Shown one piece after another: positions 6,064 through 33,120 of a stretch of DNA of 64,000 bases. The number at the start of each line of letters is the position of its first letter. Positions within the stretch are counted from its first letter, which is position 1. This stretch comes from a virus (taxonomy: Duplodnaviria; Caudoviricetes): IMG/VR virus record IMGVR_UViG_3300042539_001740, one strand, 5' to 3'. Position numbers and translations under genes: made by a program. The notes under the pieces are model-generated. The model ran no database searches and was not told where the DNA came from. It saw only the letters and a list, made by a program, of their open reading frames with translations.

Positions 6064-6708
6064 ATGGTAAAATTTTATCCACCAACAACAGATGCTAATT
6101 TAGATACAAGTAAATTCAAAAGATGGACTTATACCCCTTATAGAAATGGTGTTGATGTTTACGCCCCTTTTGATGGAAAGATTTATGGTGTTGATAAGAA
6201 GAAGGGACTAGTTAAAATTAAACACTTTTTTTCAAAAGACACTTATACTACTAAATTTTATGAATTAGGTGACATATATAAATCTAATGGGGATACTGTA
6301 AGAATGGGGGAAATTATAGGTAAAACAAGTTCAAGTCCTTTCAGTATGGAAATTGTAGATTCAGGTAATTTGGAACAATTGATAACACCATTCTTCACTG
6401 GTAGTGTAAATCTTAGAACAGAACCTAAACAAGAAAAAAATGTATCAAAAGAAAAGGAAATCCAAATTAAAGACAAAGAAACTTCAGATAAATTCGAAAA
6501 ACAAAAAGAAAAAAATAAGAAAGAAAAATATGTACCTGGTTTAAAAACTTATGAACCTGGTAAACTTTCTTTACTAGATGTTGGTTTAGTCCCCTTTCAT
6601 TTATTAGGAATGGCTGGTACTTATCTTCAAAATAGAATGAAAAGGAAAAAAGCAGAAAAAGAAAATTTAGAAGAGGAAGTGCAAAGAATTAAACAACTTA
6701 TAAAATAA
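6064..6708 (+). CDS. Degenerate M23 peptidase-domain protein with C-terminal LEEEVQRIKQLIK motif
   Basis: GVDVYAPFDG...VKIKH...GDTVRMGEIIG fits the M23 fold, but the HxxxD and HxH Zn ligands are replaced. Confidence 0.6.
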   Translation: MVKFYPPTTDANLDTSKFKRWTYTPYRNGVDVYAPFDGKIYGVDKKKGLVKIKHFFSKDTYTTKFYELGDIYKSNGDTVRMGEIIGKTSSSPFSMEIVDSGNLEQLITPFFTGSVNLRTEPKQEKNVSKEKEIQIKDKETSDKFEKQKEKNKKEKYVPGLKTYEPGKLSLLDVGLVPFHLLGMAGTYLQNRMKRKKAEKENLEEEVQRIKQLIK

Positions 6709-6745
6709 AAAAATCCCCATCTTAAAAAGTGGGGATTTATTTTTT
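6706..6745. terminator. Bidirectional terminator between convergent genes
   Basis: A-run, AAATCCCCAT/GTGGGGATTT stem, T-run. Confidence 0.75.
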
Positions 6746-6759
6746 GTAAGAAATTATAA

Positions 6760-6924
6760 CTATTTCTCAACTTTAGCTGAATCAACAGATGGAGTTGTAA
6801 CTGTAGTAGTTTCAACGGCTGTAGAATCTGTAGTTGTAGTTTTTTCTTCAGTAGCTGCAGTAGTTCCACAAGAAGCAAGAACAGTGCTAAGAACAACGAT
6901 TGTTCCAAAAAGTAATTTTCTCAT
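6760..6924 (-). CDS. 54-aa Thr-rich lipoprotein (not in ORF track)
   Basis: MRKLLFGTIVVLSTVLASCGTTAATEEKTTTTDSTAVETTTVTTPSVDSAKVEK; lipobox LASC-G. Confidence 0.8.
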   Translation of the reverse strand: MRKLLFGTIVVLSTVLASCGTTAATEEKTTTTDSTAVETTTVTTPSVDSAKVEK

Positions 6925-7057
6925 TTTGTCTAAAAAATTTAAGATTTTAATTTGATTTAGTTATTAAACACTTAATAAATACGCATTAAACTTTAATAAG
7001 TCAAATGGTGTTGAAAAATTTTTTGTTAAAATTATAATTATAAAAAAACTAAATAAT

Positions 7058-7414
7058 ATGAATTGGAAACACACCTTGATTATTGTGGTGTCTATTTTGT
7101 TTATTGGAATGGGTTTGGGTTATTTGATAAGTTATAACGCAAAGGAAACTAGAAATCTCCACCAACAACTAATAGATGCTGAAAGAAAAGCTATTGATTC
7201 TTTATATAAAGAATTGGAAGTTATGAAAACTGAAAGGGAAACTATGGAATCCCAACTAAATGCACTTACTACTGGTATTAGAATTAGTGAGTCAAACTTA
7301 TCAACAAAAATAAACCAACTAAAAATTCAAAACAATGTTAAGATTGAAGCTATTACTAATAGTACTAATGATGAGCTGCTCGATGGTTTACGCACAAGAT
7401 TTGGCAAAAAGTAA
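7058..7414 (+). CDS. TM + coiled-coil protein, i-spanin-like
   Basis: N-terminal TM, long helical periplasmic region; overlaps the next gene by 80 nt. Confidence 0.5.
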   Translation: MNWKHTLIIVVSILFIGMGLGYLISYNAKETRNLHQQLIDAERKAIDSLYKELEVMKTERETMESQLNALTTGIRISESNLSTKINQLKIQNNVKIEAITNSTNDELLDGLRTRFGKK

Positions 7415-7829
7415 CAAAGATTCCGTAAGTCCTAAAATAGATTTAGTTGTTATAGATGGAGATACACTTTTTACAATCAATAGAAAGGTTGCAATACAAA
7501 TAGCAATTGAACATGATTCCTTAGAAATCGTAACAAGTAAATTGAAAGAATGTAATGGTGTATTAGATTATTGTCTTGAGGTTAAAAATCAGTACAAAAC
7601 TGCATTAGACCAATCCCAAGGTGTGAGTGATATGTTGAGAAAAGAAATTGAAAAGAAGGACAAAATTATTGGTAGTTACAAAAAGATTGATGAATCTCAA
7701 CAAGCTATGTACAAAGAACTGAATACTGAATTTAAGAAAGCTAAGAACAGAAACAAGTGGTTAACAGGATTAAGTATTGGTGGGGTTACAGTAGGATTCA
7801 CTTCAATTATCCTTTTACTTCTTAAGTAA
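7335..7829 (+). CDS. Signal peptide + coiled coil + C-terminal TM protein, spanin-like
   Basis: Signal (MMSC lipobox or YA-Q SPI site), coiled coil, hydrophobic C-terminus; overlapping arrangement typical of spanin pairs. Confidence 0.45.
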   Translation: MLRLKLLLIVLMMSCSMVYAQDLAKSNKDSVSPKIDLVVIDGDTLFTINRKVAIQIAIEHDSLEIVTSKLKECNGVLDYCLEVKNQYKTALDQSQGVSDMLRKEIEKKDKIIGSYKKIDESQQAMYKELNTEFKKAKNRNKWLTGLSIGGVTVGFTSIILLLLK

Positions 7830-7881
7830 TCATATTATATTTTTTATGTCTTAGGACATAAAGATTAAATAATTTATTATT

Positions 7882-8250
7882 ATGGAAATTACTTATTTTG
7901 CTTTGGGTATGCTTTCGATGGTTGCTTTAACATTTGTTGGAGTTGTTGTTTGGGGTTTGTTCAGGGTCAGTAAAATTGAAAGACAAATTGCTGTCATAAA
8001 ACAAAACGATAGATTCGAGTTTGACAACGTTCAACGACAATTTGAAAATGTTTATCGTGGTATCGATAGTCAAAGGGATGATTACAGACACGAATTTGAA
8101 TCCGTGTTTCGTAGGTTTGAAACAATCGAGGAGAATTCAAGGTTGAATACCGATAACTTGGTGAGAATGATGAATGATAGATATGATGATTCAATTCGTT
8201 ACACAGACAAAAGAATTGATAAGTCATTAAATCAAAAAGAAGTATTATAA
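7882..8250 (+). CDS. Membrane-anchored coiled-coil protein
   Basis: N-terminal TM then a helical repeat-like region. Confidence 0.65.
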   Translation: MEITYFALGMLSMVALTFVGVVVWGLFRVSKIERQIAVIKQNDRFEFDNVQRQFENVYRGIDSQRDDYRHEFESVFRRFETIEENSRLNTDNLVRMMNDRYDDSIRYTDKRIDKSLNQKEVL

Positions 8251-8750: not shown

Positions 8751-10145
8751 ATGACACCGAAGGAATTAGCTGATGAAGAATCAGAGATTAAATTTGAGGA
8801 TGATAAGGTTTTATTTATCAAAGTGAAAGGGTATGACGCTATGGACTACTACGCTTCTGAAAAATTGAAGAGAGAATATAATAAGTTCAATAGATATGGT
8901 GATGTCTATTTAATCGTTGATAAAGATGGTGAGAATAGTTATGTATTGAATCAAGTAAGAAATGGCTATACTGATGTGTTGGATTTTGATGGGATGGTAA
9001 ATAACTTTATGGATGTAATTGAGGATTATCCACAATTAGAATCGAAACTTGTTGAGTTCATTAAACCTGAGAACCCTTATGAAATGTTGTTATTAATTAA
9101 GGCGGGTAAAAAATATGATAAATGGGATATGAGAAGCATTGATGAATCTTTAAATGGGATGACACTTAACGAAAAGAATCCTGGTAAGAGTATGATTCAA
9201 CTTATGTTTGATGCTGATGAATATATATCTTTTTTTGACTATAAAGAAGGTGAATGGGATGCAAGGATATTGGGGTCTATATTTGGAAATAGTTATTATG
9301 GTAGTTCTTTTGATTTGATACCTAGTGATATGACTTGGGACGATTGGAAAGAAGGTTATATGTTTGGTTCATTTGATGATAAAAACAAAAAAAAGTTGGA
9401 TGATATTGTTTCATTTCTAATTCCTGGTGTAAAAGATTTAAAAGACAAAGATGAGGATAAATATAATAAGAGTGTTGTTCAGTTCTTAGATACCAATTTT
9501 CCGGTGGTTGGTGAAAGGATTGCTGATGAGTACAATTCATTAAGAAACGAATCCGCAGTAGAAAAAATCAAAGAAATTGGTATAAAAGATATTGCGGATG
9601 TATTCCAACAATATGGGGTTTTCAGAAAATCAGGTGTTTTTACAAATTATGTGACAACCGTAAATATCCTATTAAGTTTATATAAAAAAACTCAAAGTAA
9701 ACAAGCAACAATTGTTGAACTATTTAAGGAATTGGGTGAAGAAATGGACTTAGATATTGGTTATTATAATGAAGTGGCTATGGATAGTTGGGATTTTGAT
9801 TTTGAACAATTTAATGATGTTGTTGGTGACCAATTGGATACAATATTAGAAGAAATAGAAGATGAACCTGAAAAGTTTGAGGCCTTCAAAAACTATGCCG
9901 ATGTATTGAAAAAACTTAATGATATGGGTTACCAAATTGGTGGTCAATATAAATTACCAAACACGGAAAATTCATTCAGAATTGACGAAATTAGAAAAGA
10001 CGACTCAAAAGTAGTAATAGTTCATTGGAATAAATCATCAGGAAGGGGAGAAAGAAGAAGTTACACAATAGAAGAGTTTGTTAATTATTTACATTCACCA
10101 GAACTTTTTGAAAGTTTAGTAAAAAGATTGAAAAGAATTATGTAA
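8751..10145 (+). CDS. Large acidic hypothetical protein, probably late/virion
   Basis: 464-aa ORF; TATTTAT upstream; C-terminal LFESLVKRLKRIM. Confidence 0.75.
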   Translation: MTPKELADEESEIKFEDDKVLFIKVKGYDAMDYYASEKLKREYNKFNRYGDVYLIVDKDGENSYVLNQVRNGYTDVLDFDGMVNNFMDVIEDYPQLESKLVEFIKPENPYEMLLLIKAGKKYDKWDMRSIDESLNGMTLNEKNPGKSMIQLMFDADEYISFFDYKEGEWDARILGSIFGNSYYGSSFDLIPSDMTWDDWKEGYMFGSFDDKNKKKLDDIVSFLIPGVKDLKDKDEDKYNKSVVQFLDTNFPVVGERIADEYNSLRNESAVEKIKEIGIKDIADVFQQYGVFRKSGVFTNYVTTVNILLSLYKKTQSKQATIVELFKELGEEMDLDIGYYNEVAMDSWDFDFEQFNDVVGDQLDTILEEIEDEPEKFEAFKNYADVLKKLNDMGYQIGGQYKLPNTENSFRIDEIRKDDSKVVIVHWNKSSGRGERRSYTIEEFVNYLHSPELFESLVKRLKRIM

Positions 10146-10154: not shown

Positions 10155-10946
10155 ATGGAACAAAATATCAATTTTTTAAAAAGGGTTTTATCTGTCCCCA
10201 CAAAAACATATAAAGAGGATTTAATGATTCAATTTTTAACCGAATGGTTGGTTGAAAATAATATTCCTTATTTTGTTGATAAGATGGGAAATGTTTATGC
10301 AACCAAACAAACTGATGAGGTTGAATATTTTCCTTGTGTCGTTGCCCACACAGATACCGTTCACGAGCTCGATACAATCAATATTCGTGAGATGATGTTA
10401 CCCAATGACCAAAACGAATTAAAGATGGCCTTAAAGGCTTTTAATGACCAAGGATTACCCACTGGAATTGGGGGTGATGACAAATGTGGTGTTTATGTTT
10501 GTTTGGAGTTATTAAAACAATTACCAAATGTCAAAGCAGCTTTCTTTGTATCGGAAGAAACAGGATGTCATGGGTCAAAAAAAGCCGATAAAGATTTCTT
10601 CTCAAATGTTGGTTATGTTATGCAATTTGATGCTCCTGGTAATTGGATGGTCAGTGAGTATTGTATGGGTGTCAAACTATTTGATAAGGGTAGTGATTTC
10701 TTCGATAAATGTGACAAAGTATTAACGGAGGGTTTTAATAGTCGAAACAAATACCAATCCCACCCTTATACTGATGTTTACGCACTTAAACAACTATTTG
10801 ATTTTTCCTGTATAAACTTTGCTGTTGGTTATTACAACTATCACACAGAACACGAATATGTAATTGTTGATGATGTATATAATACTTTGGATATTGCTAA
10901 GAAAATGATATCTGAGTTGGGTACAAAAAAATACACTAAAAAATAA
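10155..10946 (+). CDS. M28/M20-clan Zn peptidase
   Basis: VAHTDTVH, GGDDKCG, SEETGC, FD and YHT metal-ligand motifs. Confidence 0.8.
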   Translation: MEQNINFLKRVLSVPTKTYKEDLMIQFLTEWLVENNIPYFVDKMGNVYATKQTDEVEYFPCVVAHTDTVHELDTINIREMMLPNDQNELKMALKAFNDQGLPTGIGGDDKCGVYVCLELLKQLPNVKAAFFVSEETGCHGSKKADKDFFSNVGYVMQFDAPGNWMVSEYCMGVKLFDKGSDFFDKCDKVLTEGFNSRNKYQSHPYTDVYALKQLFDFSCINFAVGYYNYHTEHEYVIVDDVYNTLDIAKKMISELGTKKYTKK

Positions 10947-10987: not shown

Positions 10988-11659
10988 ATGAGTAAGTATA
11001 GAAATATTAATGAAAGTGACATCGAAAGATTATCTAATATAATTTTAGAAACTGAATCTCAAACAGAAGAATTAGACGAAATTCTAAGTGGTACTAAAGC
11101 TAGTGACTTTTTCCAAGGTGTAAGAGGTTTTATGAAAGGTGAAAGTTTTGGTTATTTTAAATTTTTGAGTAAAATTAAAAATAGAAGTCAAAAAGTAATT
11201 AAAGAACTTGATGACATTGAAAAATTTATGGAAGAACTCAAGGAGTTAAAACCAAGAGTTGATAAGTTATCAATCGCACCTGAGAAAAAAATGAGATTGT
11301 TAAAACTTTTGGATTTTGTTATTACAAAGTGGGAACCATTTTTTCCTGGTTACAAAAAAGCTTTAGGTGAAATAAATCTTTTATCTACTGAAAAATTGAG
11401 TGGACAACGATTAGATGTTGTTCCTGGTTCAAAGAGAGCGCAAATAGGTAAAGATTTGATGATGTCAAAGGATGAAATGAGTCCTGAAGAAGATTTGAGT
11501 AAACCTGAAGTGGTTGATTTTGATACTACAACAACTACAACAACTAAGAAGTCAACAAGTCCTTTAACAAGTACAGGTGAAACAAAGGGTACAGAGGAAA
11601 AGAAAAAAGAAGAAAATTTAAAAGAGGAAATTGATAGATTCAAACAATTAATAAAATAA
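10988..11659 (+). CDS. Hypothetical protein with N-terminal INESDIERL and C-terminal LKEEIDRFKQLIK motifs; Thr-rich linker
   Basis: ORF track; TATTTAT at 10968. Confidence 0.75.
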   Translation: MSKYRNINESDIERLSNIILETESQTEELDEILSGTKASDFFQGVRGFMKGESFGYFKFLSKIKNRSQKVIKELDDIEKFMEELKELKPRVDKLSIAPEKKMRLLKLLDFVITKWEPFFPGYKKALGEINLLSTEKLSGQRLDVVPGSKRAQIGKDLMMSKDEMSPEEDLSKPEVVDFDTTTTTTTKKSTSPLTSTGETKGTEEKKKEENLKEEIDRFKQLIK

Positions 11660-11661: not shown

Positions 11662-11689
11662 AAAAAAGGGACTATTCAGTCCCTTTTTT
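11662..11689. terminator. Bidirectional terminator
   Basis: AAAAAAGGGACT-ATTC-AGTCCCTTTTTT between convergent genes. Confidence 0.85.
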
Positions 11690-13702
11690 CTTTTTGGTTT
11701 TTTTGGTTTCCTTTTCTTTGAAAATTATACTTTCATTATCTACGGTTAGAATGTATTGTTCATTTTCTATAATTTTACCATTTAACACCTCTTCTGATAC
11801 AAAATCTTCAATTTTATCTTGAATTGCTCTTTTGATTGGTCTGGCACCATATGTTTCATCAAAACCAACTTTAGAAATTAATTCTAAAACTGAATCATCA
11901 CAAGAAATATTATAATTCAAACCTTCTAATCTTTTAATTAGTTTATCGACCTCTAATTTAACAATTTGTTTTACTTCGTCTTCCTTCAATGTATTAAAAA
12001 CAATAATTTCATCAATACGATTAAGGAATTCAGGGGCAAAGAATTTCTGCAATTCCTTTTTTAACATATCCCTTTTATGTTCCTCTTCAATGTAAACATT
12101 CGCGTTTGTTTTGAATCCAACACCAGTACCAAAATCTTGTAGTTTTTTGACACCAAGGTTTGAGGTCATAATAATGATACAATTCTTGAAATTAATTTTT
12201 CTTCCAAGACCATCAGTAAGATGTCCATCGTCTAAAACTTGGAGTAACGTTGCAAACACGTCTTTATTTGCTTTCTCAATTTCATCGAATAAAATAACTG
12301 AATATGGTTTATTTTTCACTTGTTCGGTAAGTTGTCCCCCTTCATCGTAACCAACGTAACCTGGAGGTGAACCAATTAATCTTGATATTGAATGTTTTTC
12401 TTGGAATTCTGACATATCAACACGGATTAGATTTTCTTCACTACCAAATATTTCCTTAGCTAATTGTTTGGCTAAATAAGTTTTACCCACACCTGTTGAG
12501 CCTAAGAAAATAAATGAACCAATTGGTTTATTAGGGTCTTTAATCCCCAATCTATTTCTCCTTATTGCTTTTGCGATTTTAAGAACAGCTTCTGATTGTC
12601 CAATAACTTTCGAAGCCAAATTGTTATCAAGAGATGAAAGTTTATTAGTTTCATCAGAATCCATTTTTGAGACAGGAATCTTAGTCATATTAGATACAAC
12701 TTCATAAACTAGTTCCACACTAACTTCTTTCTTTTTGTTTAATAAATCAAATTCGAATTTCTTTTTTTCCTCTTCTAACTTATCTAATATTTTTGTTTCC
12801 TTATCTCTTAAATCTGCAGCCAGTTCATAGTTTTGACTTTTTACAACATCTATTTTTTGTTTTTTTATTTCTTGGGCTTGTGTTTTCAAATCCTCCACAA
12901 TTTGGGGCATTTTAATTTCAACCTGACTTCTTGCTCCGACTTCATCAATAATGTCAAATGCCTTATCCGGAAATTCTCTATCTGTAATATATCTTTCTGC
13001 TAAATCAACACAAAGTTTAAGTACATCATCACTATAATTTACTTTATGGTAATTTTCATATTTGTCTTTGACATTTAATAAAATTTGTAATGTTTCATCT
13101 TTAGTTGATGGGTCAACAATTACTTTTTGGAATCGTCTTTCTAATGCCCCATCTTTTTCAAAATTCTTTCTATATTCATCCAAAGTGGTTGCACCAATAC
13201 ATTGGATTTCCCCTCTTGCTAAGGCTGGTTTAAATATGTTAGAGGCATCCAATGAACCTGATGAATTACCTGCACCAACAATTTGATGGATTTCATCGAT
13301 AAACAAAATGATATTTGGGGCGGCTTGTAGTTCTTCTATAATCACCTTCATTCTTTCCTCAAATTGTCCTCTATATTTTGTACCTGCAACAATTGAGGTC
13401 ATATCTAAGGACATAATTCTTTTATCCATTAGATTTCTTGGACAATCTCCATTCAATATTTTCAAGGCCAAACCTTCTACTATAGCGGTTTTTCCACAAC
13501 CTGGTTCACCGATTATAATTGGATTATTTTTCTTTCTTCTTGATAATATTTGGGCTATTCTTGTTATTTCTCTATCTCTACCTACAACAGGGTCTAATTT
13601 TCCCTCCTCCGCAAGTTTAACCAAATCTTTTGCAAAATTATTTAATACTGGTGTGTCGCCCTTACCTTTACTTGAGTAATCTCCATCTTTAGATTCTATC
13701 AT
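11672..13702 (-). CDS. clpC: ClpC-type AAA+ unfoldase lacking the N-terminal Clp-repeat domain (likely start ATG 13702)
   Basis: Two AAA modules (GEPGCGKT, FIDEIH; GSTGVGKT, LFDEIEK), UVR-type M domain (NYELAADLRD) and a VGF ClpP-docking loop. Confidence 0.92.
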   Translation of the reverse strand: MIESKDGDYSSKGKGDTPVLNNFAKDLVKLAEEGKLDPVVGRDREITRIAQILSRRKKNNPIIIGEPGCGKTAIVEGLALKILNGDCPRNLMDKRIMSLDMTSIVAGTKYRGQFEERMKVIIEELQAAPNIILFIDEIHQIVGAGNSSGSLDASNIFKPALARGEIQCIGATTLDEYRKNFEKDGALERRFQKVIVDPSTKDETLQILLNVKDKYENYHKVNYSDDVLKLCVDLAERYITDREFPDKAFDIIDEVGARSQVEIKMPQIVEDLKTQAQEIKKQKIDVVKSQNYELAADLRDKETKILDKLEEEKKKFEFDLLNKKKEVSVELVYEVVSNMTKIPVSKMDSDETNKLSSLDNNLASKVIGQSEAVLKIAKAIRRNRLGIKDPNKPIGSFIFLGSTGVGKTYLAKQLAKEIFGSEENLIRVDMSEFQEKHSISRLIGSPPGYVGYDEGGQLTEQVKNKPYSVILFDEIEKANKDVFATLLQVLDDGHLTDGLGRKINFKNCIIIMTSNLGVKKLQDFGTGVGFKTNANVYIEEEHKRDMLKKELQKFFAPEFLNRIDEIIVFNTLKEDEVKQIVKLEVDKLIKRLEGLNYNISCDDSVLELISKVGFDETYGARPIKRAIQDKIEDFVSEEVLNGKIIENEQYILTVDNESIIFKEKETKKTKKKKGTE

Positions 13703-13755
13703 AACTTTTTTATTTAATAATAATGTTTTATTTGGTATTTTCAACAATCTTGTAA

Positions 13756-13868: not shown

Positions 13869-14306
13869 ATGGATAACGATTTTTATAAAAAATTTGAGAA
13901 AATTTTGGATGAGATTTTCGGTGGAAAACATAAACCAACAATTCCATTTGAAAGTTTCTTGGAGAATTTAAAGTATGATGACATTGATACTGATTTTAGT
14001 AAACTAAGAAATTCAGTTAGAAAGACAAAGGATGGAATTATTACTTCGATTCATTTTGTGATTAACCCTAACACAAAATGGTCAGCATCTAATTCAAATA
14101 CAAAGAGGGATTTGGAAACTAAATTAAACGAATGTATCCAAAACCAAGATTTTGAACAGGCGGCTAAAATCAGAGACGAAATAAAAGAACTTCAGAAAAA
14201 CAAAGGGAAAATTGAAACTCTCAAAAAAGAAATGGAAATAGCTATTGAAAAACAAGATTTCGAAAGGGCTATAGAAATCAGAGATGAATTAAAAAAAATT
14301 AATTAA
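13869..14306 (+). CDS. Tandem UVR (UvrB/C-motif) protein, candidate ClpC adaptor
   Basis: Two motifs: LNECIQNQDFEQAAKIRDEI and MEIAIEKQDFERAIEIRDEL. Confidence 0.85.
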   Translation: MDNDFYKKFEKILDEIFGGKHKPTIPFESFLENLKYDDIDTDFSKLRNSVRKTKDGIITSIHFVINPNTKWSASNSNTKRDLETKLNECIQNQDFEQAAKIRDEIKELQKNKGKIETLKKEMEIAIEKQDFERAIEIRDELKKIN

Positions 14307-15450: not shown

Positions 15451-16698
15451 ATGGGAAAATTAAAACCTATTGGTAGTGAAAAATTAGGAGGAATGGAAAA
15501 AATTCAAAGGATTTTGGAAATTTCTAAATATAATTTAAATACTCCTCAGTCAATTAACGAGAGTGAATCTTTAGAATATTCAAAAACATTAGCTGATGGA
15601 AATACATATCATATCACAAAAGAAAAAAATGGATATGTTATTAAAAAAGGGTTGACCGAATCAGTTAGTGAATATATTGAGCCGATGAAAAATAGAAAGT
15701 ATTATTCGTCTTATTCACAAGCATTGAAACGTTTAAACCTTATTGTGAAAGAGGTAAATGTAAATGAGGGTTATAGAGGAAACTTGTCATTATTTAACGA
15801 ACAAGAAAATATTGATGACAAAAAATATTTTTTAGTAAAAGGTGGTGAAACCAATGAACAAGAAGAAACTCAAATTCCACCAGCACCAGCAGCACCTGCG
15901 ACACCACCAGCTGTACCAGCAACACCTGAAACTGAAATGCCTATCGAAGAACCATTACCCGCTGAAGAACCTATGACAGATGAGATGCCAATGGATGATG
16001 AAGTTCCTATGGATGGTGAGGGTGAAACTCCACAAGAGGAAGATGTTGTTACTTTCAAAAGTATTCAAAAACTTACTGGTAAATTAGCTCAAAAACTTAG
16101 AACATTTGGTACTGATGAAGATAATGATATGTCATCCCAAGATGTAAAATATGTTATTAATTCAATTTTGTCTGCTTTGGACTTAAGTAAACTTGAACCT
16201 GACGACATTGAAGAAATTACTTCAAAATTTGAAGAGGGGGAAGAAATTGAAGAACCTGAAATGAGTGATGAGGAATTACCTGAACCTGAAATGGGTGGTG
16301 AAGAATTACCTGAACCTGAGATGGGTGGTGAAGAATTACCTGAACCTGAAATACCAGTTGCACCAGAAGGTGAAATGGCTGAAATGTACCCAAGACACGG
16401 AAGAAGAGAAAGTTTTGAGGAACGTCAACACAAAATGAGGATGAAAGAAATGGGATATGGTGTATCTGAATCAAAAGTTGACAGAATATTACAAAAGTAT
16501 TTCAATGAAACTCCAAAAAATATTAATGAAAGTAAGTTGGAAAGGTTATCCGAAAACTTTAAACAAGAATCAACTTCAAAAAGATTTTTGAACAAATACC
16601 CCTCCGCTAAACTTATTGGTAAAAACAAAAAGGGAACTTTAGTTTTTGAAATGGAAGGAGAAAAATTTGGCGTAACAACAAGTGGTAGATTGATATGA
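15451..16698 (+). CDS. Acidic Pro/Glu-rich protein, prohead-core-like
   Basis: Low-complexity acidic linker, many L/I-x-E sites, located in the head module. Confidence 0.6.
   Translation: MGKLKPIGSEKLGGMEKIQRILEISKYNLNTPQSINESESLEYSKTLADGNTYHITKEKNGYVIKKGLTESVSEYIEPMKNRKYYSSYSQALKRLNLIVKEVNVNEGYRGNLSLFNEQENIDDKKYFLVKGGETNEQEETQIPPAPAAPATPPAVPATPETEMPIEEPLPAEEPMTDEMPMDDEVPMDGEGETPQEEDVVTFKSIQKLTGKLAQKLRTFGTDEDNDMSSQDVKYVINSILSALDLSKLEPDDIEEITSKFEEGEEIEEPEMSDEELPEPEMGGEELPEPEMGGEELPEPEIPVAPEGEMAEMYPRHGRRESFEERQHKMRMKEMGYGVSESKVDRILQKYFNETPKNINESKLERLSENFKQESTSKRFLNKYPSAKLIGKNKKGTLVFEMEGEKFGVTTSGRLI
16252..16350 (+). repeat. 30-nt coding tandem repeat (EPEMGGEELP x ~3)
   Basis: gaacctgaaatgggtggtgaagaattacct units. 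Confidence 0.85.
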
Positions 16699-17105
16699 AC
16701 TATTTGATATATGTTAATGAATTAGGTCCGAATTATAAAGGTGATAACATTTACGAGTTTATATTTAGTGATAATATTACTGATGTTTGGGGTGAAATGT
16801 GGGAATCAAAACCATCTAATGGTTATCCACTACCACCTGATTTAGAACATATAAAAAAAGTAGGTGTTTTAAAAAATGATAAAATTTCTCTATCAGTCAT
16901 ACAAAAATCAGATTATTTTTCAATGATTGATGCAATAGATGATGTTGTAGCTTTAGGTTGGGAAAATGAATCTGAGTTAATTAATTTTGATTTAGTTAAA
17001 AGATTAGTTTTCAGATTTGGTGAAACTGAGGAGAATGTAAAAAATAAATTATATGAAAGGGATATAGTCCTTGAATTTGAAAAAAAATTTTCTTATGAAT
17101 CTTAA
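16695..17105 (+). CDS. Conserved hypothetical protein
   Basis: ATGA-coupled ORF in the head operon. Confidence 0.7.
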   Translation: MNYLIYVNELGPNYKGDNIYEFIFSDNITDVWGEMWESKPSNGYPLPPDLEHIKKVGVLKNDKISLSVIQKSDYFSMIDAIDDVVALGWENESELINFDLVKRLVFRFGETEENVKNKLYERDIVLEFEKKFSYES

Positions 17106-21363: not shown

Positions 21364-23151
21364 ATGGAAAATAATCAAAATAATTTAACAGTTTGGCAAA
21401 GATTAACACAAGCATTCGGTCCTAATGCTTTACTTAATCAAGATTACCCAACTTATAGTTTCGATAGAAAGGAGTTATTAAAAACTAAATCAAAACAAGA
21501 ATTTGATAAGGAATTACTCCAAGCACAACAAACTTACTACTTAGCAAATCAATGGACTAAGATTGAAAGTAACTTATACACTCAGGCTGTATATTACGAA
21601 CCAACTAGATTGGCTTCGTTTTATGATTATGAATCTATGGAATATACACCCGAAATATCTGCTGCGTTAGACATTTATGGTGAGGAATCTACTACGGTTG
21701 ACCAGAATGGGTATATGTTACAAATATACTCAGAATCAAAACGTATCAAGGGTATTTTAATAGATTTATTTTTGAATGTTTTAGATTTAAATACAAATCT
21801 ACCAATGTGGACTAGAAATACTTGTAAGTATGGTGATAACTTTGTCTATCTTAAACTTGACCCTGAAAAAGGAGTTGTTGGTTGTATGCAATTACCAAAT
21901 ATCGAAATTGAACGTTTGGAAAGAGGTATGCCAGCGCAAGCAAGTAGACAAAACGTAGAAGAGCCAGCTGAAAACAAAGGACTAAGATTCAAGTGGAAAG
22001 CTAAAGATATGGAATTTAATTCTTGGGAAATAGCACACTTTAGATTATTAGGTGATGATAGAAAGTTACCATATGGTACATCAATGTTAGAAAAGGCAAG
22101 GCGTATTTGGAAACAACTATTGTTATCTGAAGATGCGATGTTAATTTATAGAACATCACGTGCACCTGAAAGAAGGGTGTTCAAAGTATTCGTTGGTAAT
22201 ATGGATGATAAAGATGTTGAACCATATGTACAACGTGTTGCAAACAAGTTCAAAAGAAGTCAGGTTGTTGATTCTCAAACAGGTAATGTGGATATGAGAT
22301 TTAATCAAATGGCTGTTGACCAAGATTATTTCATTCCTGTACGTGATGCCGCTGCGGCAAGTCCGATTGATACATTACCTGGTGGTCAAAACTTAGGTGA
22401 GATTGCTGATATTGAATACATCCAAAAGAAACTACTTACTGCTTTACGTGTACCTAAAGCGTTTTTAGGTTTTGAAGAACCAGTTGGTGATGGTAAAAAT
22501 TTATCATTAATTGATATTCGTTTTGCAAGAACAATTAACAGAATCCAAAAATCTATGGTTGCTGAGTTAAATAAGATTGCGATTGTACATTTATTCCTTT
22601 TAGGTTTTGAAGATGAATTATCCAATTTTACTTTAAGTTTAACAAACCCATCGAGTCAAGCAGATTTATTAAAAATTGACATATGGAAAGAGAAGGTCGC
22701 ATTATATAAGGAATGTGTTACATCAATTGAGGGTATTGCACCAACTTCTGTTTCATGGGCTAAGAAACACGTTATGGGATTCTCTGATGAGGAAATCAAA
22801 CTTGATTTACAACAACAGAGAATTGAAAAAGCTGTAGGTGCTGAGCTTACAAATACCGCAACAATTATAACAAATACTGGTGTGTTTGATAATGTTGATA
22901 AATTATATACTCAAACAACAGGTACAACATCAGGTGGGGCACCACCACCTCCAGGAGGAGCTGAAGGGGGAACTCCACCACCAGCAGGTGGTCCTGAAGG
23001 TATGGGTGAAACATTTAACAATAGAGATAATTTAAACATATTGTTGGAAAACGAAGGGATATTTGAGGAAATGAGTTTTATTGATTTGTCCAAAGCCAAA
23101 AATTATTTGGGGGAAATGGAGAGTCAACTAAGTAAACTCCTAAAAGATTAA
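21364..23151 (+). CDS. gp20: Portal vertex protein (T4 gp20-like)
   Basis: YRTSRAPERRVFKVFVGNM, DYFIPVR, IDTLPGGQNLGEIADIEY, ALRVP. Confidence 0.95.
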   Translation: MENNQNNLTVWQRLTQAFGPNALLNQDYPTYSFDRKELLKTKSKQEFDKELLQAQQTYYLANQWTKIESNLYTQAVYYEPTRLASFYDYESMEYTPEISAALDIYGEESTTVDQNGYMLQIYSESKRIKGILIDLFLNVLDLNTNLPMWTRNTCKYGDNFVYLKLDPEKGVVGCMQLPNIEIERLERGMPAQASRQNVEEPAENKGLRFKWKAKDMEFNSWEIAHFRLLGDDRKLPYGTSMLEKARRIWKQLLLSEDAMLIYRTSRAPERRVFKVFVGNMDDKDVEPYVQRVANKFKRSQVVDSQTGNVDMRFNQMAVDQDYFIPVRDAAAASPIDTLPGGQNLGEIADIEYIQKKLLTALRVPKAFLGFEEPVGDGKNLSLIDIRFARTINRIQKSMVAELNKIAIVHLFLLGFEDELSNFTLSLTNPSSQADLLKIDIWKEKVALYKECVTSIEGIAPTSVSWAKKHVMGFSDEEIKLDLQQQRIEKAVGAELTNTATIITNTGVFDNVDKLYTQTTGTTSGGAPPPPGGAEGGTPPPAGGPEGMGETFNNRDNLNILLENEGIFEEMSFIDLSKAKNYLGEMESQLSKLLKD

Positions 23152-24666: not shown

Positions 24667-25389
24667 ATGAACTTAGAAGTAATCAAACCAGGACACGTGG
24701 GTAAAGGTATATTAATCGAATATGATGCAGGTTATGTTTCTCCTTCAATGGATGAAAATGCCAAAATAATAAAAGAATCTAAAAACTTTTTAGACCACTC
24801 CAAACCATTCGAATTTTATGCTGTATTACAAAAATATAACACCCCAAATCGTAATGGAAGAGTTTATCCTGAAAGAATCTTAAAAAGAGAAGCAGAAAAC
24901 TACAAAAAAATGATTGCTAAAGGTACTTCATTGTCTGAGTTAAATCACCCTGAGTCCTCCTTGATAGATTTAGATAGAGTTTCTCATATTATTACTGAAG
25001 TATGGTGGGAAGGACCTATATTGATGGGTAAACTAAAATTACTAACCTCACCAGGTTTTCACGAGAGGGGAATAGTTTCAACAAAAGGAGATATGGCTGC
25101 GAATTATCTCAGACAAGGAGTTACGTTAGGTATTTCATCTCGTGGTGTTGGTTCACTTAAAAAGGTTGGGGAACAGAATGAAGTACAAGATGACTTCGAG
25201 TTAATTTGTTTTGACTTAGTATCTTCACCATCAACACCAGGGGCTTACCTTTTTATAAATAAAGAGGATAGAGATATGTACGCTGAAAACTTAGACGAAG
25301 ATAAAAAAATGGCTATAGAAAGAAATGTTGGTGAAAAAGGTAACGCTACTCTTGATTTAATGAAAAAATTGGCTAAACTTGGGTATTAG
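24667..25389 (+). CDS. gp21: Prohead core protease (T4 gp21-like)
   Basis: NRNGRVYP, ELNHP, VSH, LGISSRGVGSL, FDLVSSPSTPGA. Confidence 0.95.
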   Translation: MNLEVIKPGHVGKGILIEYDAGYVSPSMDENAKIIKESKNFLDHSKPFEFYAVLQKYNTPNRNGRVYPERILKREAENYKKMIAKGTSLSELNHPESSLIDLDRVSHIITEVWWEGPILMGKLKLLTSPGFHERGIVSTKGDMAANYLRQGVTLGISSRGVGSLKKVGEQNEVQDDFELICFDLVSSPSTPGAYLFINKEDRDMYAENLDEDKKMAIERNVGEKGNATLDLMKKLAKLGY

Positions 25390-25795: not shown

Positions 25796-27346
25796 ATGGC
25801 TGAAGAAAAAAACATTTTAGAAGAGGCAATCATTCAAATGAAAAATTTGGAAGAAGCGGTTGCTGAGAATGCAAAAGGAATACTTGGTTCAGTAATGAGA
25901 CAAGAAATCAAGGAATTAGTAAAAGAATCTCTTAACGAACAAGAAGACGAAGAAGAGGTTGATTCAGAAGAAGAAGAATCTGACATTGCTGATGTTGAAT
26001 TCGATGACGAAATGGATGATGAAGACATGGAAGACGAAATGGACGATGAAGACGAAATGGATGATGAAGACATGGAAGACGAAATGGATGATGAAGACAT
26101 GGAATTTGAAGACGATGAAGAAATGGAAGATGATGAAGATGTTACAATTGATTTAACAAATGAACCAATCGAAAACGTAATGAAAGTATTTTCAAGAATG
26201 AAAGATACTGACAAAATATCGGTGGTTGAAGATGGTGAAGGTAACATTGAACTATCTGATGATGAGACTAATAAAGAGTATTACATTGTACGTGAAGGGT
26301 TAGATATGGATGAAGAAATGTATGAAATGGATGAACCAATCTATGAACTCGAAATGGAAACTGACGAAGAAATGGATGACATGGATATGATGGAAATGGA
26401 TGACATAGATATGATGGAAATGGATGACATGGATATGATGGAAATGGATGACATGGATATGATGGAAATGGATGAACCAATCTATGAAATCGAAATGGAC
26501 GAGGAAATGGATGATTCTATGGACGAGGAAATGGATGATTTAATGGAAGCAAAGAAAGCCAGAAAACCGAAAGGAGTTGGTATTGGACACGGACCTAAAT
26601 TTAACTATGGAAAGGTTATGGACTTCCCAACAAAGAAAATGAAAAAGGGTGATGAAGCACCATATACTGGTAAAGGACCGAAGTATGAATTCGACAAAAA
26701 ATCACCAAGTTTACAAGGTGAATTTAAGGAGGGTAAATATGGTATGAACAAAGGCGATAAATCAAAAACTCACAAAGGTGAAGAAGATTATACCGGAAAA
26801 AAAGGTATGAAATCAAAAACTCACAAAGGTTCAGATTTTGAAAAAAGGGAAACTAAAGAAGCTTCAAGAACACTAGGTAATGGTAAATATTGGGGTAGAG
26901 AAGGTCTTCCAAAACCAAAAGCAGCACCACGTCATATCAGAAAAGAATCTATCGAATCTCAAGAAGTAAATTTACTTAGAGAAAAAAATGAGGAATACAG
27001 AAAAGCATTAAACGTTTTCAGAAATAAATTAAATGAAGTTGCAATATTTAATTCAAACTTAGCTTATGCGACAAGATTGTTTACAGAACATTCAACTTCA
27101 AAACAAGAAAAAATTAACATTCTGAAAAGATTTGATGGTGTAGAAACTCTTAAAGAATCAAAAAATCTTTACAAAATTATTAAAGACGAATTAACTCCTT
27201 CTACAGGAAAACAAGTTAATGAATCAATCGAAAGAACAATTCAAAAAAGTCCTTCAAATGGTTCATCAATTAACTTGATTGAGTCAAAAACTTACGAAAA
27301 TCCTCAATTCCTTAGAATGAAAGATTTAATGTCAAAATTAAAATAA
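25796..27346 (+). CDS. Prohead scaffold/core protein (gp22-like) with D/E/M repeats
   Basis: Directly before the capsid gene; acidic low-complexity region, coiled-coil C-terminus, many L-x-E sites. Confidence 0.75.
   Translation: MAEEKNILEEAIIQMKNLEEAVAENAKGILGSVMRQEIKELVKESLNEQEDEEEVDSEEEESDIADVEFDDEMDDEDMEDEMDDEDEMDDEDMEDEMDDEDMEFEDDEEMEDDEDVTIDLTNEPIENVMKVFSRMKDTDKISVVEDGEGNIELSDDETNKEYYIVREGLDMDEEMYEMDEPIYELEMETDEEMDDMDMMEMDDIDMMEMDDMDMMEMDDMDMMEMDEPIYEIEMDEEMDDSMDEEMDDLMEAKKARKPKGVGIGHGPKFNYGKVMDFPTKKMKKGDEAPYTGKGPKYEFDKKSPSLQGEFKEGKYGMNKGDKSKTHKGEEDYTGKKGMKSKTHKGSDFEKRETKEASRTLGNGKYWGREGLPKPKAAPRHIRKESIESQEVNLLREKNEEYRKALNVFRNKLNEVAIFNSNLAYATRLFTEHSTSKQEKINILKRFDGVETLKESKNLYKIIKDELTPSTGKQVNESIERTIQKSPSNGSSINLIESKTYENPQFLRMKDLMSKLK
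26008..26540 (+). repeat. Coding microrepeats MDDEDMEDE and MDDMDMMEM
   Basis: Repeated gaaatggatgatgaagacatggaagac and atggatgacatggatatgatggaa units. Confidence 0.85.
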
Positions 27347-30058: not shown

Positions 30059-30541
30059 ATGAATAAGAAGTTATATTTTTTGAATGAATCCGAAAGAGAA
30101 AGGATTTTGAATTTACACGAAAACAGAACCAAAAAACAATATCTGACTGAAAATATCTTTTCCGACTTATTTAAAACTTTAGGAACAGGTATTATTACAA
30201 CAGGTTGGGAAAAATTTCCGTGTGTTGTACAATCTAAAAATGTTAAACCAATTTTAAGAAAGGATAATACAGTTATGTATGATGGAAGTGGTTTTTTATG
30301 GTTTGGGAATGGTAGAAGGATGAATAAAACAACTAAAGAAATGTCAACTTATTATTGTGGTACTGATGGAAAGATACAGATTACACCAGTAACAAGTGGA
30401 ACTAATATTATTGGAATGGGGAAAGTCATAAATAGTGTAAAACCACAAATACCTGAAGTTTTAAAACTTGCAGGTTTGAGTGGTACCGATTTAAGTCAGG
30501 AAAACATAAACAAACTTTATGATATATTATCAAAGAAATAG
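30059..30541 (+). CDS. Hypothetical protein with N-terminal LNESERERILNLH motif
   Basis: ORF track; TATTTAT at 30038. Confidence 0.7.
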   Translation: MNKKLYFLNESERERILNLHENRTKKQYLTENIFSDLFKTLGTGIITTGWEKFPCVVQSKNVKPILRKDNTVMYDGSGFLWFGNGRRMNKTTKEMSTYYCGTDGKIQITPVTSGTNIIGMGKVINSVKPQIPEVLKLAGLSGTDLSQENINKLYDILSKK

Positions 30542-30544: not shown

Positions 30545-30955
30545 ATGAAACAAATAAGAATTGATAAAAATGATAAATTAAGAATATTAAGTTTACATAA
30601 CAAAAATATTTTGGCTGAACAAACAACAGAAAATAAATCTATCGCAGATATTCAAAAACTTTTGGGGTTAAAAGATGATAATCAGTTCGGGCCACAAACC
30701 TTAGCCGCAATTAAAACTAAGTTAGGACAACCTGATAAAGTGACAACAACACCTACTATAACGACAAGTTCTACTGAGACAACTAAAACAGATTTACCAA
30801 GTGACTTTGGACAAATTAAACCAATAGAAATGTCACAAATGAAAGTTGGGGCATTAACTACTGATGGTGGTAAAGTGACTGGGGTCGCAACTTCAACAGT
30901 TCAAGGTAAACCTGAGGAAAATGCTTCAGATGCTATAGATTCTAAGAATCCTTAG
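30545..30955 (+). CDS. Protein with peptidoglycan-binding-like motif and Thr-rich tail
   Basis: IQKLLGLKDDNQFGPQTLAAIK resembles PG_binding_1; N-terminal DKLRILSLH motif. Confidence 0.55.
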   Translation: MKQIRIDKNDKLRILSLHNKNILAEQTTENKSIADIQKLLGLKDDNQFGPQTLAAIKTKLGQPDKVTTTPTITTSSTETTKTDLPSDFGQIKPIEMSQMKVGALTTDGGKVTGVATSTVQGKPEENASDAIDSKNP

Positions 30956-31166: not shown

Positions 31167-31181
31167 AAAAATAATATACAA

Positions 31182-32120
31182 ATGATAGATAAGATTGTCA
31201 AGAAATTAAAACAAGAGATTTTAAAAGAAGCCACTTCAGATTCAAGTGGAGCTCGTGGTTCATTTGTTGTACCATTGAGACCAGGAAAAAGAATATTTGA
31301 TAAATCACAACTTGCACCTTTTAATGAACCCGCATCCAAATATTTTAGTCAGAAATTGGCAACAGATAGTTATGATGGGTCAATGGAGACACCAAAAAAA
31401 GAAATAAAAAAATTAGAATCAATCGCAAAAAAGGTATCAATATATGCAAAAAATAATCCTGTAAGAAATGATGATGATGGTGATGTAATTAATCCATTTC
31501 CAGGTCACAAAATCAAAAGACCATCAAAAAATGAAATTAACCAACCATTCAACAAAACAATTAAAGAGGTAACCTCAGGTTATGGTGGTGAGTACAATGC
31601 ACCCATAGAATTGGGTATGAAAAAATGGAAAAAAGAATCTTTAGCCCCATTTACAGAATTTGTTGATACTGAAGTTAATAACAAAAGTATTAAATCAACT
31701 ACCAAGGATAATATCAAACGTGTAGTTGGAATGTGGGAAAAGGGTAATGACAATACTTACAAGATTGATACCCACAATGTTCACACAATGAATGAATGGA
31801 GTTATGAAGAAGCCCCAATTTTGACTGAAGATTTGGCCGTATGGTTTGGAACAAAGAAAAAACCCAAGGGGTCAAAACAACCTAAAGGACCTTGGGTTAA
31901 CATATGTAGAAAAGTAGATGGTAAACATCCTCCTTGTGGAAGAAGTGAAGCTGATACAAAAGGATATCCCAAATGTAGAGCAGCTGGTGTTGCTGGTAAA
32001 ATGAGCGCATCTCAGAAACAAGCAGCTTGTGCTCAGAAACGTAGGGCTGAAAAGAAAGACCCAAAGTTAGGTACTGGTAACAAACCTACGATGACATCAT
32101 ACAAACCAAAGAAAAAATAA
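31182..32120 (+). CDS. Head-type protein with basic Cys-containing C-terminal domain
   Basis: LTE-DLAVWF...PWVNIC...HPPCGR...GYPKCR. Confidence 0.7.
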   Translation: MIDKIVKKLKQEILKEATSDSSGARGSFVVPLRPGKRIFDKSQLAPFNEPASKYFSQKLATDSYDGSMETPKKEIKKLESIAKKVSIYAKNNPVRNDDDGDVINPFPGHKIKRPSKNEINQPFNKTIKEVTSGYGGEYNAPIELGMKKWKKESLAPFTEFVDTEVNNKSIKSTTKDNIKRVVGMWEKGNDNTYKIDTHNVHTMNEWSYEEAPILTEDLAVWFGTKKKPKGSKQPKGPWVNICRKVDGKHPPCGRSEADTKGYPKCRAAGVAGKMSASQKQAACAQKRRAEKKDPKLGTGNKPTMTSYKPKKK

Positions 32121-32555
32121 TTATTTAGAAGGGGTTAAATCAGATAGTGATTTAACCTTTTTTATTATGTTTTCTAATGAGTGTTCTATTTGTGACATTA
32201 TTTGGTCTTCGTACTCTTGTCTAATTGTTTCCACTTTTCCATCATACATTTTTGATAATCTTTCCCAATTTCTATCACCAACAACAACATCATAGTGGTA
32301 CACGTGATTTGTGATACTGATTGTTCCGTGGTCTAAGATGCAAAACAAATCTAATTCTGCATTTTTGATATAACGTTTTCCACTTAAAGGTGCTAACAAG
32401 AATTTTGATTCGGGATGTGTAATAAGTGAACGAGCAATTGACATACACATTTTTTGGGTTTCTGAGATTTTTTCTTTTTTGGCTACACTTTTACTATTCC
32501 AAGTTAACCATTTGACATAGATTCTTTTTGTGATTCGTTTGATGAACTTTTCCAT
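32121..32555 (-). CDS. Hypothetical protein under a host-type promoter
   Basis: ORF track; promoter at 32582-32612. Confidence 0.7.
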   Translation of the reverse strand: MEKFIKRITKRIYVKWLTWNSKSVAKKEKISETQKMCMSIARSLITHPESKFLLAPLSGKRYIKNAELDLFCILDHGTISITNHVYHYDVVVGDRNWERLSKMYDGKVETIRQEYEDQIMSQIEHSLENIIKKVKSLSDLTPSK

Positions 32556-32581
32556 ATGATTGTTTATTTTTTGATTGAGTA

Positions 32582-32612
32582 CAAATATATGGATAGGTTT
32601 TGATAAAACAAA
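32582..32612 (-). promoter_or_regulatory. Bacteroidota housekeeping-sigma promoter
   Basis: Minus strand TTTG-N19-TATATTTG. Confidence 0.65.
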
Positions 32613-32613
32613 A

Positions 32614-32642
32614 AAAAAGGTAGAAAATAATTCTACCTTTTT
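32614..32642 (-). terminator. Terminator hairpin
   Basis: AAAAAGGTAGAA-AATAA-TTCTACCTTTTT. Confidence 0.75.
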
Positions 32643-32655
32643 AATAATTTATAAT

Positions 32656-33120
32656 TTAACAATAAGGTGGGGAACAACGTTTCTTTCCATCTAATCCTTT
32701 CATTTTACCTTTACAAACTTGAACGGCAAAACCGTTCGCATAAGCGGAGGGGTACACTTTGAATTTGGATTTAGCTGCAGCTTTTCCTCGACTACATAGT
32801 TTTGTACCAGTTTTCTTTTTCCCTTCCATCATAACCATTTCTTCGTCTTCTTCATAGTCATCATATTGAGTTTCATTCATCATAAAATCAAATACCTGAC
32901 TTAGATTTTCTTTTGCTACTGTTATATGGTCATCAGCCCAATCGTGACCACCTTTTAGGATAGCTTCAACTTCCATAGGGTCTAACTCTAATAATAATTG
33001 AGCTTGTCTTATCATTTGTTCTAAGTTTGAAAAGAACATATAGTTTTGGATTTGTCCATAATCCTTTTCATTAACTATTTTTTTAACTAAGTTGTTAAGT
33101 TGTGATTCTGTAATTCTCAT
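32656..33120 (-). CDS. Protein with N-terminal ITESQLNNLVKKIVNE motif and basic C-terminal YPSAYANG domain
   Basis: KLCSRGKAAAKSKFKVYPSAYANGFAVQVCKG...CSPPYC. Confidence 0.75.
   Translation of the reverse strand: MRITESQLNNLVKKIVNEKDYGQIQNYMFFSNLEQMIRQAQLLLELDPMEVEAILKGGHDWADDHITVAKENLSQVFDFMMNETQYDDYEEDEEMVMMEGKKKTGTKLCSRGKAAAKSKFKVYPSAYANGFAVQVCKGKMKGLDGKKRCSPPYC

Follow-up and report, generated by a model that had tools for sequence, protein, structure and literature searches.

A conserved amphipathic helix at the termini of unrelated proteins in a clade of phages with a T4-like head module, and its possible role in docking to the head core

The IMG/VR virus record IMGVR_UViG_3300042539_001740 (194.5 kb, rated as 66% complete, G+C ~30%) encodes unrelated proteins ending in a common short peptide, which is the subject of the present study. 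The window, i.e., the whole stretch of 64,000 nucleotides that was analysed, is the minus strand of bases 121525-185524 of this record and contains a T4-like head module with the gene order portal, protease, scaffold, major capsid protein (MCP). A terminase gene (19373-21136) precedes the genes of the portal (21364-23151), of a gp21-family (T4-type) prohead protease that presumably carries out the processing (24667..25389, plus strand; Pfam PF03420 Peptidase_S77, E 1.2e-22), of a scaffold with acidic repeats, assigned by synteny to the gp22 position between protease and MCP (25796..27346, plus strand), and of an MCP of the T4 gp23 family, homologues of which carry PF07068 (27383..29251, plus strand). 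Upstream of the terminase and head genes lie two genes, 6064-6708 and 10988-11659, whose unrelated products end in nearly the same peptide (ENLEEEVQRIKQLIK and ENLKEEIDRFKQLIK, respectively), exactly as a preliminary description made from the sequence alone had it. The peptide, called the tag below, has the 13-residue consensus [LIV]-x-E-E-[IV]-x-R-[IF]-K-x-L-[ILM]-K, followed by the stop codon, and forms an amphipathic helix.

The first carrier (6064..6708, plus strand) is a protein of 214 amino acids (aa) composed of a degenerate M23/LytM beta-domain (residues 1-115; Pfam PF01551, E 2.4e-7), a linker (121-177) and a C-terminal helix (179-213) bearing the tag LEEEVQRIKQLIK (6667..6705, plus strand), with the stop codon directly after it. 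In the AlphaFold2 model, the beta-domain has a pLDDT (predicted local distance difference test) above 90, the K/E-rich linker is disordered (below 50) and the C-terminal helix stands apart; the best Foldseek matches of the domain are Csd2, phi29 gp13, EnvC and DipM. In an alignment, neither of the zinc-ligand motifs HxxxD and HxH is seen here, whereas L006, L029, L047 and L065 (L-numbers denote loci), which are tagged relatives, have both, so the earlier label "dead M23" is apt, and the fold is still M23/LytM. In homologues down to 45% identity, L202, E204, E205, I209, L212 and K214 are invariant and the exact C-terminus is L-x-E-E-h-x-x-I-K-x-L-h-K (h, hydrophobic residue), while the linker drifts.

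The second carrier (10988..11659, plus strand; 223 aa) consists of an N-terminal leader, INESDIERLSNIILE, the last residues of which are I-L-E (11006..11050, plus strand), a helical-bundle body, a disordered linker rich in Thr, and the tag LKEEIDRFKQLIK (11618..11656, plus strand). The RFK variant seen here occurs throughout the family. Its alignment (A5) shows a conserved leader and body, a low-complexity linker of ~40 to 200 residues and an invariant end, [LIV]-x-E-E-[IV]-x-R-F-K-x-L-I-[KR]. The AlphaFold2 model likewise comprises a helical bundle, a disordered stretch and a terminal helix. The protein matched no Pfam or PHROG family, the ESM Atlas gave no usable match, and a BFVD fold search with the model returned nothing below E 0.04. 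Since the linkers of the carriers are disordered and variable in length, their architecture fits a tethered peptide.

The DNA of the two tails is 78% identical over 67 nt, and each tagged gene is followed within 5 nt by a terminator-like hairpin, both of which the preliminary description had pointed out. One hairpin lies 3' of the M23-like gene (6711..6738, plus strand), and the other, bidirectional, lies between 10988-11659 and a convergent ClpC-like gene (11662..11689). The possibility that the tails are copies of one DNA element including the terminator was rejected, as the hairpin sequences are unrelated and the codons vary; the DNA likeness is attributed to constraint on the peptide and not to recent gene conversion, because the families keep RIK or RFK across phages.

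Two further carriers lie in the same genome beyond the window. A 532-aa acidic zinc-ribbon protein (genome coordinates 6525-8123) bears a third strict copy in its tail ...LNEEFDRIKQLLGYDRKTQ, and a 100-aa protein bears a diverged fourth (...VTEDLKRINDLIKKLI). Of the 214 ORFs in the genome, three have a match to the expression EE[IVFLM].R[IFLMV]K.L[ILMV], in each case no more than 17 residues from the C-terminus, and 200 shuffled proteomes contained none; the expression was composed after the three sequences were known, so this count is not an independent test, which is provided by the IMG/VR scan and the profile search described below. The tail ELFESLVKRLKRIM (10101..10142, plus strand) of the 464-aa protein 8751-10145, proposed earlier as another relative, may be a shifted one. 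It is kept as ELFE.L[VI][RK][KR].K[RK].. in homologues of 28-99% identity and resembles the tag after a shift of one residue, but it falls outside the tag patterns and differs in more distant homologues.

A degenerate DNA pattern encoding E-E-x-x-R-I-K-x-L-h-K, with TRR directly after it, was used to scan IMG/VR. The scan returned 73 matches in 69 loci, all in frame, and 72 of the 73 close long ORFs. Every match ends in a true stop codon, and TGG, which the pattern also permits, occurs at none. Residue -12, two before the first Glu and free in the pattern, is L, I, V or F in 42/42 unique tails. Among 44 distinct DNA tails, each invariant residue is encoded by 2-5 synonymous codons (Ile, Leu and Arg by 3-5 each), which indicates that selection acts on the tag at the peptide level. 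With the tails removed, the carriers fall into eight BLASTP clusters, comprising six further body families and the carriers of this genome. Small peptidoglycan hydrolases form a large group (M15, VanY and M23 types, the last with zinc ligands either retained or lost). Another group, of 716-839 aa, is marked by hydrophobic segments of glycine-zipper type, and the rest are a 151-aa family, a 177-205-aa family, the family of 10988-11659, and singletons. The positional orthologue of the 151-aa family in the genome studied has a diverged tail. At L012:8404-10429, and also in L043, genes of M15-type, VanY-type and M23-like peptidases stand in tandem, each product having an acidic linker, a short hydrophobic motif and a C-terminal tag. 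No Pfam or PHROG family was found for 8/10 carrier representatives checked, nor for most proteins of the window.

The tag is almost wholly a property of one clade, since 63/69 tag loci share at least two other genes with it. When 1.84 billion representatives were searched exhaustively with a profile, 19 matches reached E ≤ 0.001, 16 of them ending at the last residue of the protein, and the matches inspected belong to the same carrier families. The same scan of 596 Gb of cellular genomes yielded 55 matches, mostly short chance ORFs, and a few unrelated families (ParB, DnaA), on which ground a host-wide targeting signal was rejected. ParB of Polaribacter and other Flavobacteriaceae metagenome-assembled genomes (L126, L146, L154, L161, L121) ends in ...EEEF(N/H/E)RIKNL(L/F)K and thus matches the tag pattern; in these likely relatives of the hosts the match may be coincidence or mimicry. 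Among cultured phages, Flavobacterium phage immuto and Microcystis phage Mel-JY01 come closest by MCP, with 41-46% identity across half of the protein, and no close cultured relative was found either by megablast with the head module or by tblastn with the M23-like and 806-aa carriers. In metagenomes this clade is present in great abundance, an MCP search giving at least 8000 candidates at E ≤ 1e-20.

Four large relatives (226-318 kb; genomes are denoted by G-numbers) have one strict tag each, on an M23-like protein in two and on an ~800-aa protein in the other two, neither of which has an M23 gene. As most complete relatives hold a single strict C-terminal tag, the "code" of terminal peptides proposed earlier is mainly N-terminal, with the C-terminal form as a minority route. 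A search for homologous loci found none with the M23-like protein and two near-identical ones with 10988-11659, and a literature search with the motif strings gave irrelevant papers alone. The C-terminal form of the helix is the new part of the finding, and the sequences compared establish a portable, strictly terminal peptide of partner type.

The same helix also occurs at N-termini. In the complete relative G003 it opens several proteins, e.g., MNLQENIDRIKEMMGLIVE... and PLNEETERILTLMGLNE..., the latter the start of an active M23 peptidase, with h-x-E after each copy; in some relatives the N-terminal copies are followed by G-L-h-x-E. The M15+M23+CBM protein of L044 bears the helix at both ends. 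A loose 12-residue pattern had 14 matches in three genomes versus 0.64 in shuffles, 13 of the 14 being terminal. This N-terminal occurrence argues against recognition of a free carboxyl end.

A separate leader, MKKVVRLTESDL..., heads dozens of unrelated small proteins. The motif [IL]-[TN]-E-S-x-L-x-[RN]-[IL]-V-K-[KR]-[IV]-[IL]-x-E has 16 copies at residues 3-8 in three genomes, with 0.23 expected, and leaders of type B end in h-h-x-E in 13/16 cases versus 21% of other proteins (Fisher P 5e-7). In the genome studied, [ILV][NTS]E[SQKT][DEQ]... has five matches, all at residues 3-8, where 0.56 would be expected anywhere in the proteins. The N-terminal relatives of the preliminary description are therefore real and bound to position, but its list of terminal peptides, offered as one set, mixes at least two motifs, the EExxRIKxL helix and the (I/L)(T/N)ES...(R/N)(I/L) leader, the latter accounting for most of its N-terminal items. 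What can be retained of its proposal is that unrelated proteins bear short amphipathic helices at their ends as a modular system, which is conserved throughout the clade.

In G003, an array of ~46 small same-strand genes, their bodies without mutual BLAST similarity, occupies 141-163 kb (loci L092-L093) and includes a run of genes headed by this leader. At least four leader types occur there: MKKVVRLTESDL..., MKIIITESQL..., M(K/R)xF(V/I)ITExEKK.I..L(Y/H)... and ..YKKRF..L.ES.MGDV.P. In the window, the 160-aa protein 30059-30541 has the leader LNESERERILNLH (30080..30118, plus strand), its homologue in L034 beginning with MKNLFILNEEEKNRILNLHE. The 154-aa basic Cys-rich protein 32656-33120 (minus strand) has the leader ITESQLNNLVKKIVNE (33067..33114, minus strand), kept in its G003 and G001 orthologues. 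Other cases are weaker. The sequence DKLRILSLH, N-terminal in the 136-aa protein 30545-30955 (30572..30598, plus strand), shares the RIL.LH core with 30059, and Pfam gave no confirmation at E ≤ 0.01 of the "PG-binding" label that this protein had received. The N-terminal IVKKLKQEILKE of the 312-aa protein 31182-32120 (31194..31229, plus strand), also listed earlier as a leader, is a weak member and is missing in the G003 orthologue. An internal copy of the leader motif, INESKLERLSENF (16522..16560, plus strand), lies 57 residues before the C-terminus of the acidic 415-aa protein 15451-16698. The basic Cys-rich ends of the leader-bearing proteins 31182-32120 and 32656-33120 match function-unassigned PHROGs, phrog_23735 and, with the C-terminal domain of the latter protein, phrog_27331.

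The tail of the scaffold, FLRMKDLMSKLK (27308-27343), has R-h-K-x-L-h in common with the tag, and 19 residues before its C-terminus stands an L-I-E|S that is conserved. In a second tail class, [GNS]-[YF]-x-x-K is added after the helix, which then stands up to seven residues from the protein end (six matches versus 0.37 in shuffles). To this class belong the G001 scaffold (...EIEKMKKLWGYSYKK), a 75-aa protein of G001 (...EMDRFKKLTNYTFKK) and the 532-aa protein of the genome studied. The occurrence of IKELVKESLNE in the scaffold, mentioned in the preliminary description, carries no statistical weight. Scaffold mimicry as a feature of the lineage studied was tried and set aside as statistically unsecured by the ranking with a position-specific scoring matrix (PSSM) given below. 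A complex prediction of the MCP (alignment A4) with a 40-residue tag chain (A3), made with no controls, scored 0.00 and is evidence neither way. The scaffold gene contains, at 25976-26540, long arrays of D/E/M codon repeats.

The octamer ATATTTAT precedes, at a distance of 12-50 nt, the sheath, tube, scaffold, protease and terminase genes. Other genes with this motif upstream are 10988, the 5454-6064 operon, the gene of the 532-aa carrier (g6525), 30059 (at 22 nt) and many leader genes of the G003 array, and 34/62 genomic sites lie within 70 nt upstream of a start codon. It may represent a late promoter or a start signal. Its spacings are tight, ~12-13 or 20-25 nt, and exactly 13 nt before 12 genes of the G003 leader array.

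The reading favoured here, tentatively and with slightly less than even confidence, is that the tag serves as a head-core docking peptide that the prohead protease cuts off. A flexible linker would hold the 13-residue helix at the extreme C-terminus of unrelated proteins, and the helix would recruit them into the core of the assembling prohead by binding the surface that holds core or scaffold proteins, i.e., the scaffold itself or the inner face of the MCP with its N-terminal propeptide. The gp21-type protease would cut at the flanking h-x-E sites, freeing inside the head a cargo that would exit with the DNA at infection. This putative cargo would consist mainly of enzymes of the peptidoglycan hydrolase type (M23, active or degenerate, M15 and VanY), together with large membrane proteins that have glycine zippers and small proteins of unassigned function. 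The commoner N-terminal leaders (MKKVVRLTESDLLRIVKRVIKE|E and related types) would belong to the same system in the classical T4 orientation.

The docking reading is preferred because a T4-type protease and cleavage motifs occur together with gene arrays resembling those of T4 internal proteins and with a link to scaffold tails in a part of the clade. The promoter-like motif common to tagged and structural genes, the similarity of the cargo to ejection proteins and the precedent of 80alpha and CpmB, considered below, point in the same direction. The gp21-type processing context, assumed in the preliminary description, was borne out by the S77 gene and by a predicted maturation site in the MCP, SFLINE|A, after E60 (codons 27545-27574), in which L57, I58 and E60 are invariant and LINE|A aligns with the FLTE|A site of T4 gp23. 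A wider version of the docking reading is possible, if doubtful: one address helix, placed at either end of a protein and akin to the docking tail of the scaffold, would load a T7/P22-style ejection set (peptidoglycan hydrolases, degenerate LytM domains, ~800-aa channel-forming membrane proteins) into the head of a contractile-tailed phage, within an abundant clade of uncultured T4-like lake phages with Flavobacterium-like hosts. The degenerate LytM domains might activate host amidases.

Several observations weigh against docking to the head core. The clade has no isolate and no virion proteome, so packaging and cleavage are putative. The L-x-E with which the tag opens doubles as the first turn of the amphipathic helix, whose hydrophobic residues are 1, 5, 8 and 11/12, and need not be a cleavage site. 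The patterns of scaffold likeness were composed after the tails had been seen, and a PSSM built from strict tags left the scaffold tails of this lineage outside the top 30 of 1014 C-termini. With 62 sites in the genome, where ~80 would be expected, the octamer shows no over-representation, and its role as a late promoter is putative. The M23-like gene stands among genes of small membrane and coiled-coil proteins with the look of a lysis cassette and has a conserved pairing with 5454-6059, the gene of a membrane-anchored protein, while the ~800-aa carriers lie beside the genes of the tail tube and ClpP.

Four other explanations were weighed. The tag could attach the hydrolases and the remaining carriers to a membrane protein of the phage, part of a complex for lysis or envelope remodelling, the enzymes being tethered or regulated at the inner membrane until lysis or during membrane-based prohead assembly. 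This is consistent with the M23-like gene starting 4 nt after 5454-6059, which encodes an N-terminal transmembrane segment, a pair that recurs in 12 divergent loci, and with the genes at 6760-8250, which encode a lipoprotein signal, a transmembrane segment with a coiled coil, and a signal peptide with a transmembrane segment. Peptidoglycan hydrolases are also the majority of the carriers, three of them in tandem at one locus, and the hydrolase family has a second conserved hydrophobic motif, LLxPFxL, before the tag. However, without zinc ligands the M23 domain of this phage cannot be an endolysin, the 10988 family, the acidic 532-aa zinc-ribbon protein and the 151-aa family have no link to lysis, the G003 homologue of 5454-6059 lies 200 kb away from the tagged gene, and scaffold tails fall within the wider motif class, all of which makes docking to the membrane unlikely. 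Docking into the tail (tube lumen, tape measure or baseplate), with the carriers as virion-associated lysins or channel formers, would fit the genes of the 716-839-aa carriers, which in four loci directly precede the tail tube gene. Tail enzymes such as phi29 gp13, a structural match here, are known to contain M23 domains, and the gp5-like hub 35485-37059 has no Pfam match at E ≤ 0.01, lysozyme families included. Yet the carriers of the genome studied are encoded upstream of the terminase and head genes and not among the tail genes, and the h-x-E flanks, the S77 protease and the likeness of scaffold tails point towards the head, so a tail destination is considered quite unlikely.

Recognition by phage Clp machinery, with the tag as a signal (for recognition or for an adaptor) that times the unfolding or degradation of its carriers, is suggested by the ClpC-like ATPase gene convergent with 10988-11659 and present in 4/4 large relatives, by the true ClpP gene that diverges from the ~800-aa tagged gene in G001 and G004, and by the basic character of the tag near the strict C-terminal end; the ClpX C-motif 2 of MuA is a comparable Clp recognition signal. 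The tag is, however, present in the complete genome of G003, which has no ClpP, and the ClpC-like and tagged genes of G001 are ~115 kb apart. The helix also occurs N-terminally, unlike a C-terminal degron, which depends on a free end, and it has 13 conserved helical residues including the E-E pair, not the 3-6 of known short hydrophobic degrons, so a Clp signal appears very unlikely. Finally, there may be no common partner at all: the tag would be a generic cap, for self-association or stabilisation, that recombination has spread, and the motifs at N-termini would reflect AT-rich composition (Lys/Ile-rich starts). The genome has 30% G+C, amphipathic K/I/L/E helices are frequent at termini, and a few cellular proteins, e.g., ParB of Flavobacteriaceae, end in the same pattern. 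Against this, shuffled proteomes give 0-0.6 matches versus 3-16 observed, eight families keep particular charged residues and the exact end position without variation, and the 596 Gb of cellular genomes yield mostly short chance ORFs, so that composition or a generic cap seems a highly improbable explanation.

Known systems offer partial parallels to docking at the head core. As cited in later papers, the T4 internal proteins IPI, IPII and IPIII as well as Alt carry a capsid-targeting sequence (CTS) of ~10 N-terminal residues (Mullaney and Black 1996, via PMC9958956, PMC3012670), which in the T4 internal-protein locus is the sole conserved element (PMC3012670). Similarly, a short terminal peptide is the only element common to diverse proteins here, an S77/gp21 protease and a gp22/gp23-type head module are present, the N-terminal leaders lie at the extreme N-terminus and end in (I/L)-x-E, and leader-bearing small genes form arrays, as the ~46 genes of G003 do. 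In contrast to the CTS, the tags are found at the extreme C-terminus, have no similarity to MKTYQEFIAE, and are putative as regards packaging and cleavage, with a cargo that includes peptidoglycan hydrolases and large membrane proteins.

A precedent for the position is the C-terminal helix-and-hook with RIIK shared by the 80alpha scaffold and SaPI1 CpmB; in 80alpha, its binding sites on the HK97-fold MCP are the N-arm and the A/P cleft (PMC5644958). Both systems have an amphipathic helix (~11 residues in 80alpha/CpmB) and a basic Ile-rich extreme C-terminus (RIIK there, RIKxL(I/L/M)K here). The motif there is common to the scaffold and a second protein; here the G001 scaffold matches the tails of small proteins clearly, whereas the scaffold of the lineage studied matches at R-h-K-x-L-h alone, a statistically unsecured likeness. 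The carriers here are cargo enzymes and not size-determining scaffolds, and MCP binding is putative. The cargo-loading peptides of encapsulins, short and conserved at the C-terminus after a flexible linker, bring diverse enzymes into an HK97-fold shell (PMC7355545). A conserved C-terminal peptide after a disordered linker on unrelated cargo enzymes is likewise found here, but encapsulins have a Gly/Ser/Leu-rich consensus and no protease step, in contrast to the E-E...R-I-K helix and the DNA-packaging T4-type head.

The cleavage motif of the giant phages SPN3US and phiKZ is S/A/G-x-E, and we know of no C-terminal tags described in them. In these phages, the gp21-like prohead protease cuts many head-internal proteins at x-x-E sites, and the head of such giant myoviruses holds a bolus of ejection proteins (PMC5694885, PMC7411985). 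Their propeptides are long and do not share one short motif, unlike the tags and leaders. The set of carriers resembles the ejection proteins of T7 and P22. To our knowledge, a C-terminal capsid address releasable by a protease has not been described for T4-like phages.

In a review of the T4 head, the localisation of proteins to the scaffolding core is said to remain "mysterious" (PMC9958956). Known enzymes bear a natural series of these 13-residue tags, placed at either terminus and in several variants, which makes the question testable. If they are head addresses, the carriers mark the set of proteins that this clade injects into the host, peptidoglycan hydrolases are head cargo in a myovirus, and a C-terminal loading tag becomes available for phage-capsid engineering where the N-terminus must stay free. 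If they address a membrane or Clp partner instead, they represent a different, also undescribed, phage-encoded system of peptide recognition.

Among the neighbouring genes, an M28/M42-like peptidase (10155..10946, plus strand; Pfam, phrog_4191) is a candidate partner. An M28/M42/M20-like peptidase is present in 21 tag loci. The M28-like enzyme is the most consistent neighbour of tagged genes, encoded a few kb away in both the M23/ClpC block and the tail-tube block (L039:7934-8950, L061:5983-6975). The ClpC-like gene mentioned above (11672..13747, minus strand) encodes a ClpC/ClpB-like double AAA+ ATPase with no N-domain (Pfam AAA_2, AAA_lid_9, ClpB_D2-small, UVR), a partner under the Clp explanation, and is adjoined by the gene of a small protein with two UVR motifs (13869-14306, plus strand). 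Bona fide ClpP (Pfam E 1e-57) is encoded in G001, G002 and G004, e.g., L039:3646-4335 (minus strand); it was not found in the 66%-complete record studied.

The M23-like gene is surrounded by small genes of envelope type (4963-8250), which together look like a lysis or spanin cassette. Their products are an HExxH protein (4963-5376), the protein with an N-terminal transmembrane segment (5454-6059), the product of a lipoprotein-signal ORF (6760-6924, minus strand), two proteins with a transmembrane segment and a coiled coil (7058-7414 and 7882-8250) and a protein with a signal peptide and a C-terminal transmembrane segment (7335-7829). A 150-nt direct repeat of 83% identity at 17800-18120, inside ORF 17071-18168, encodes a repeated Pro/Lys/Glu-rich segment.

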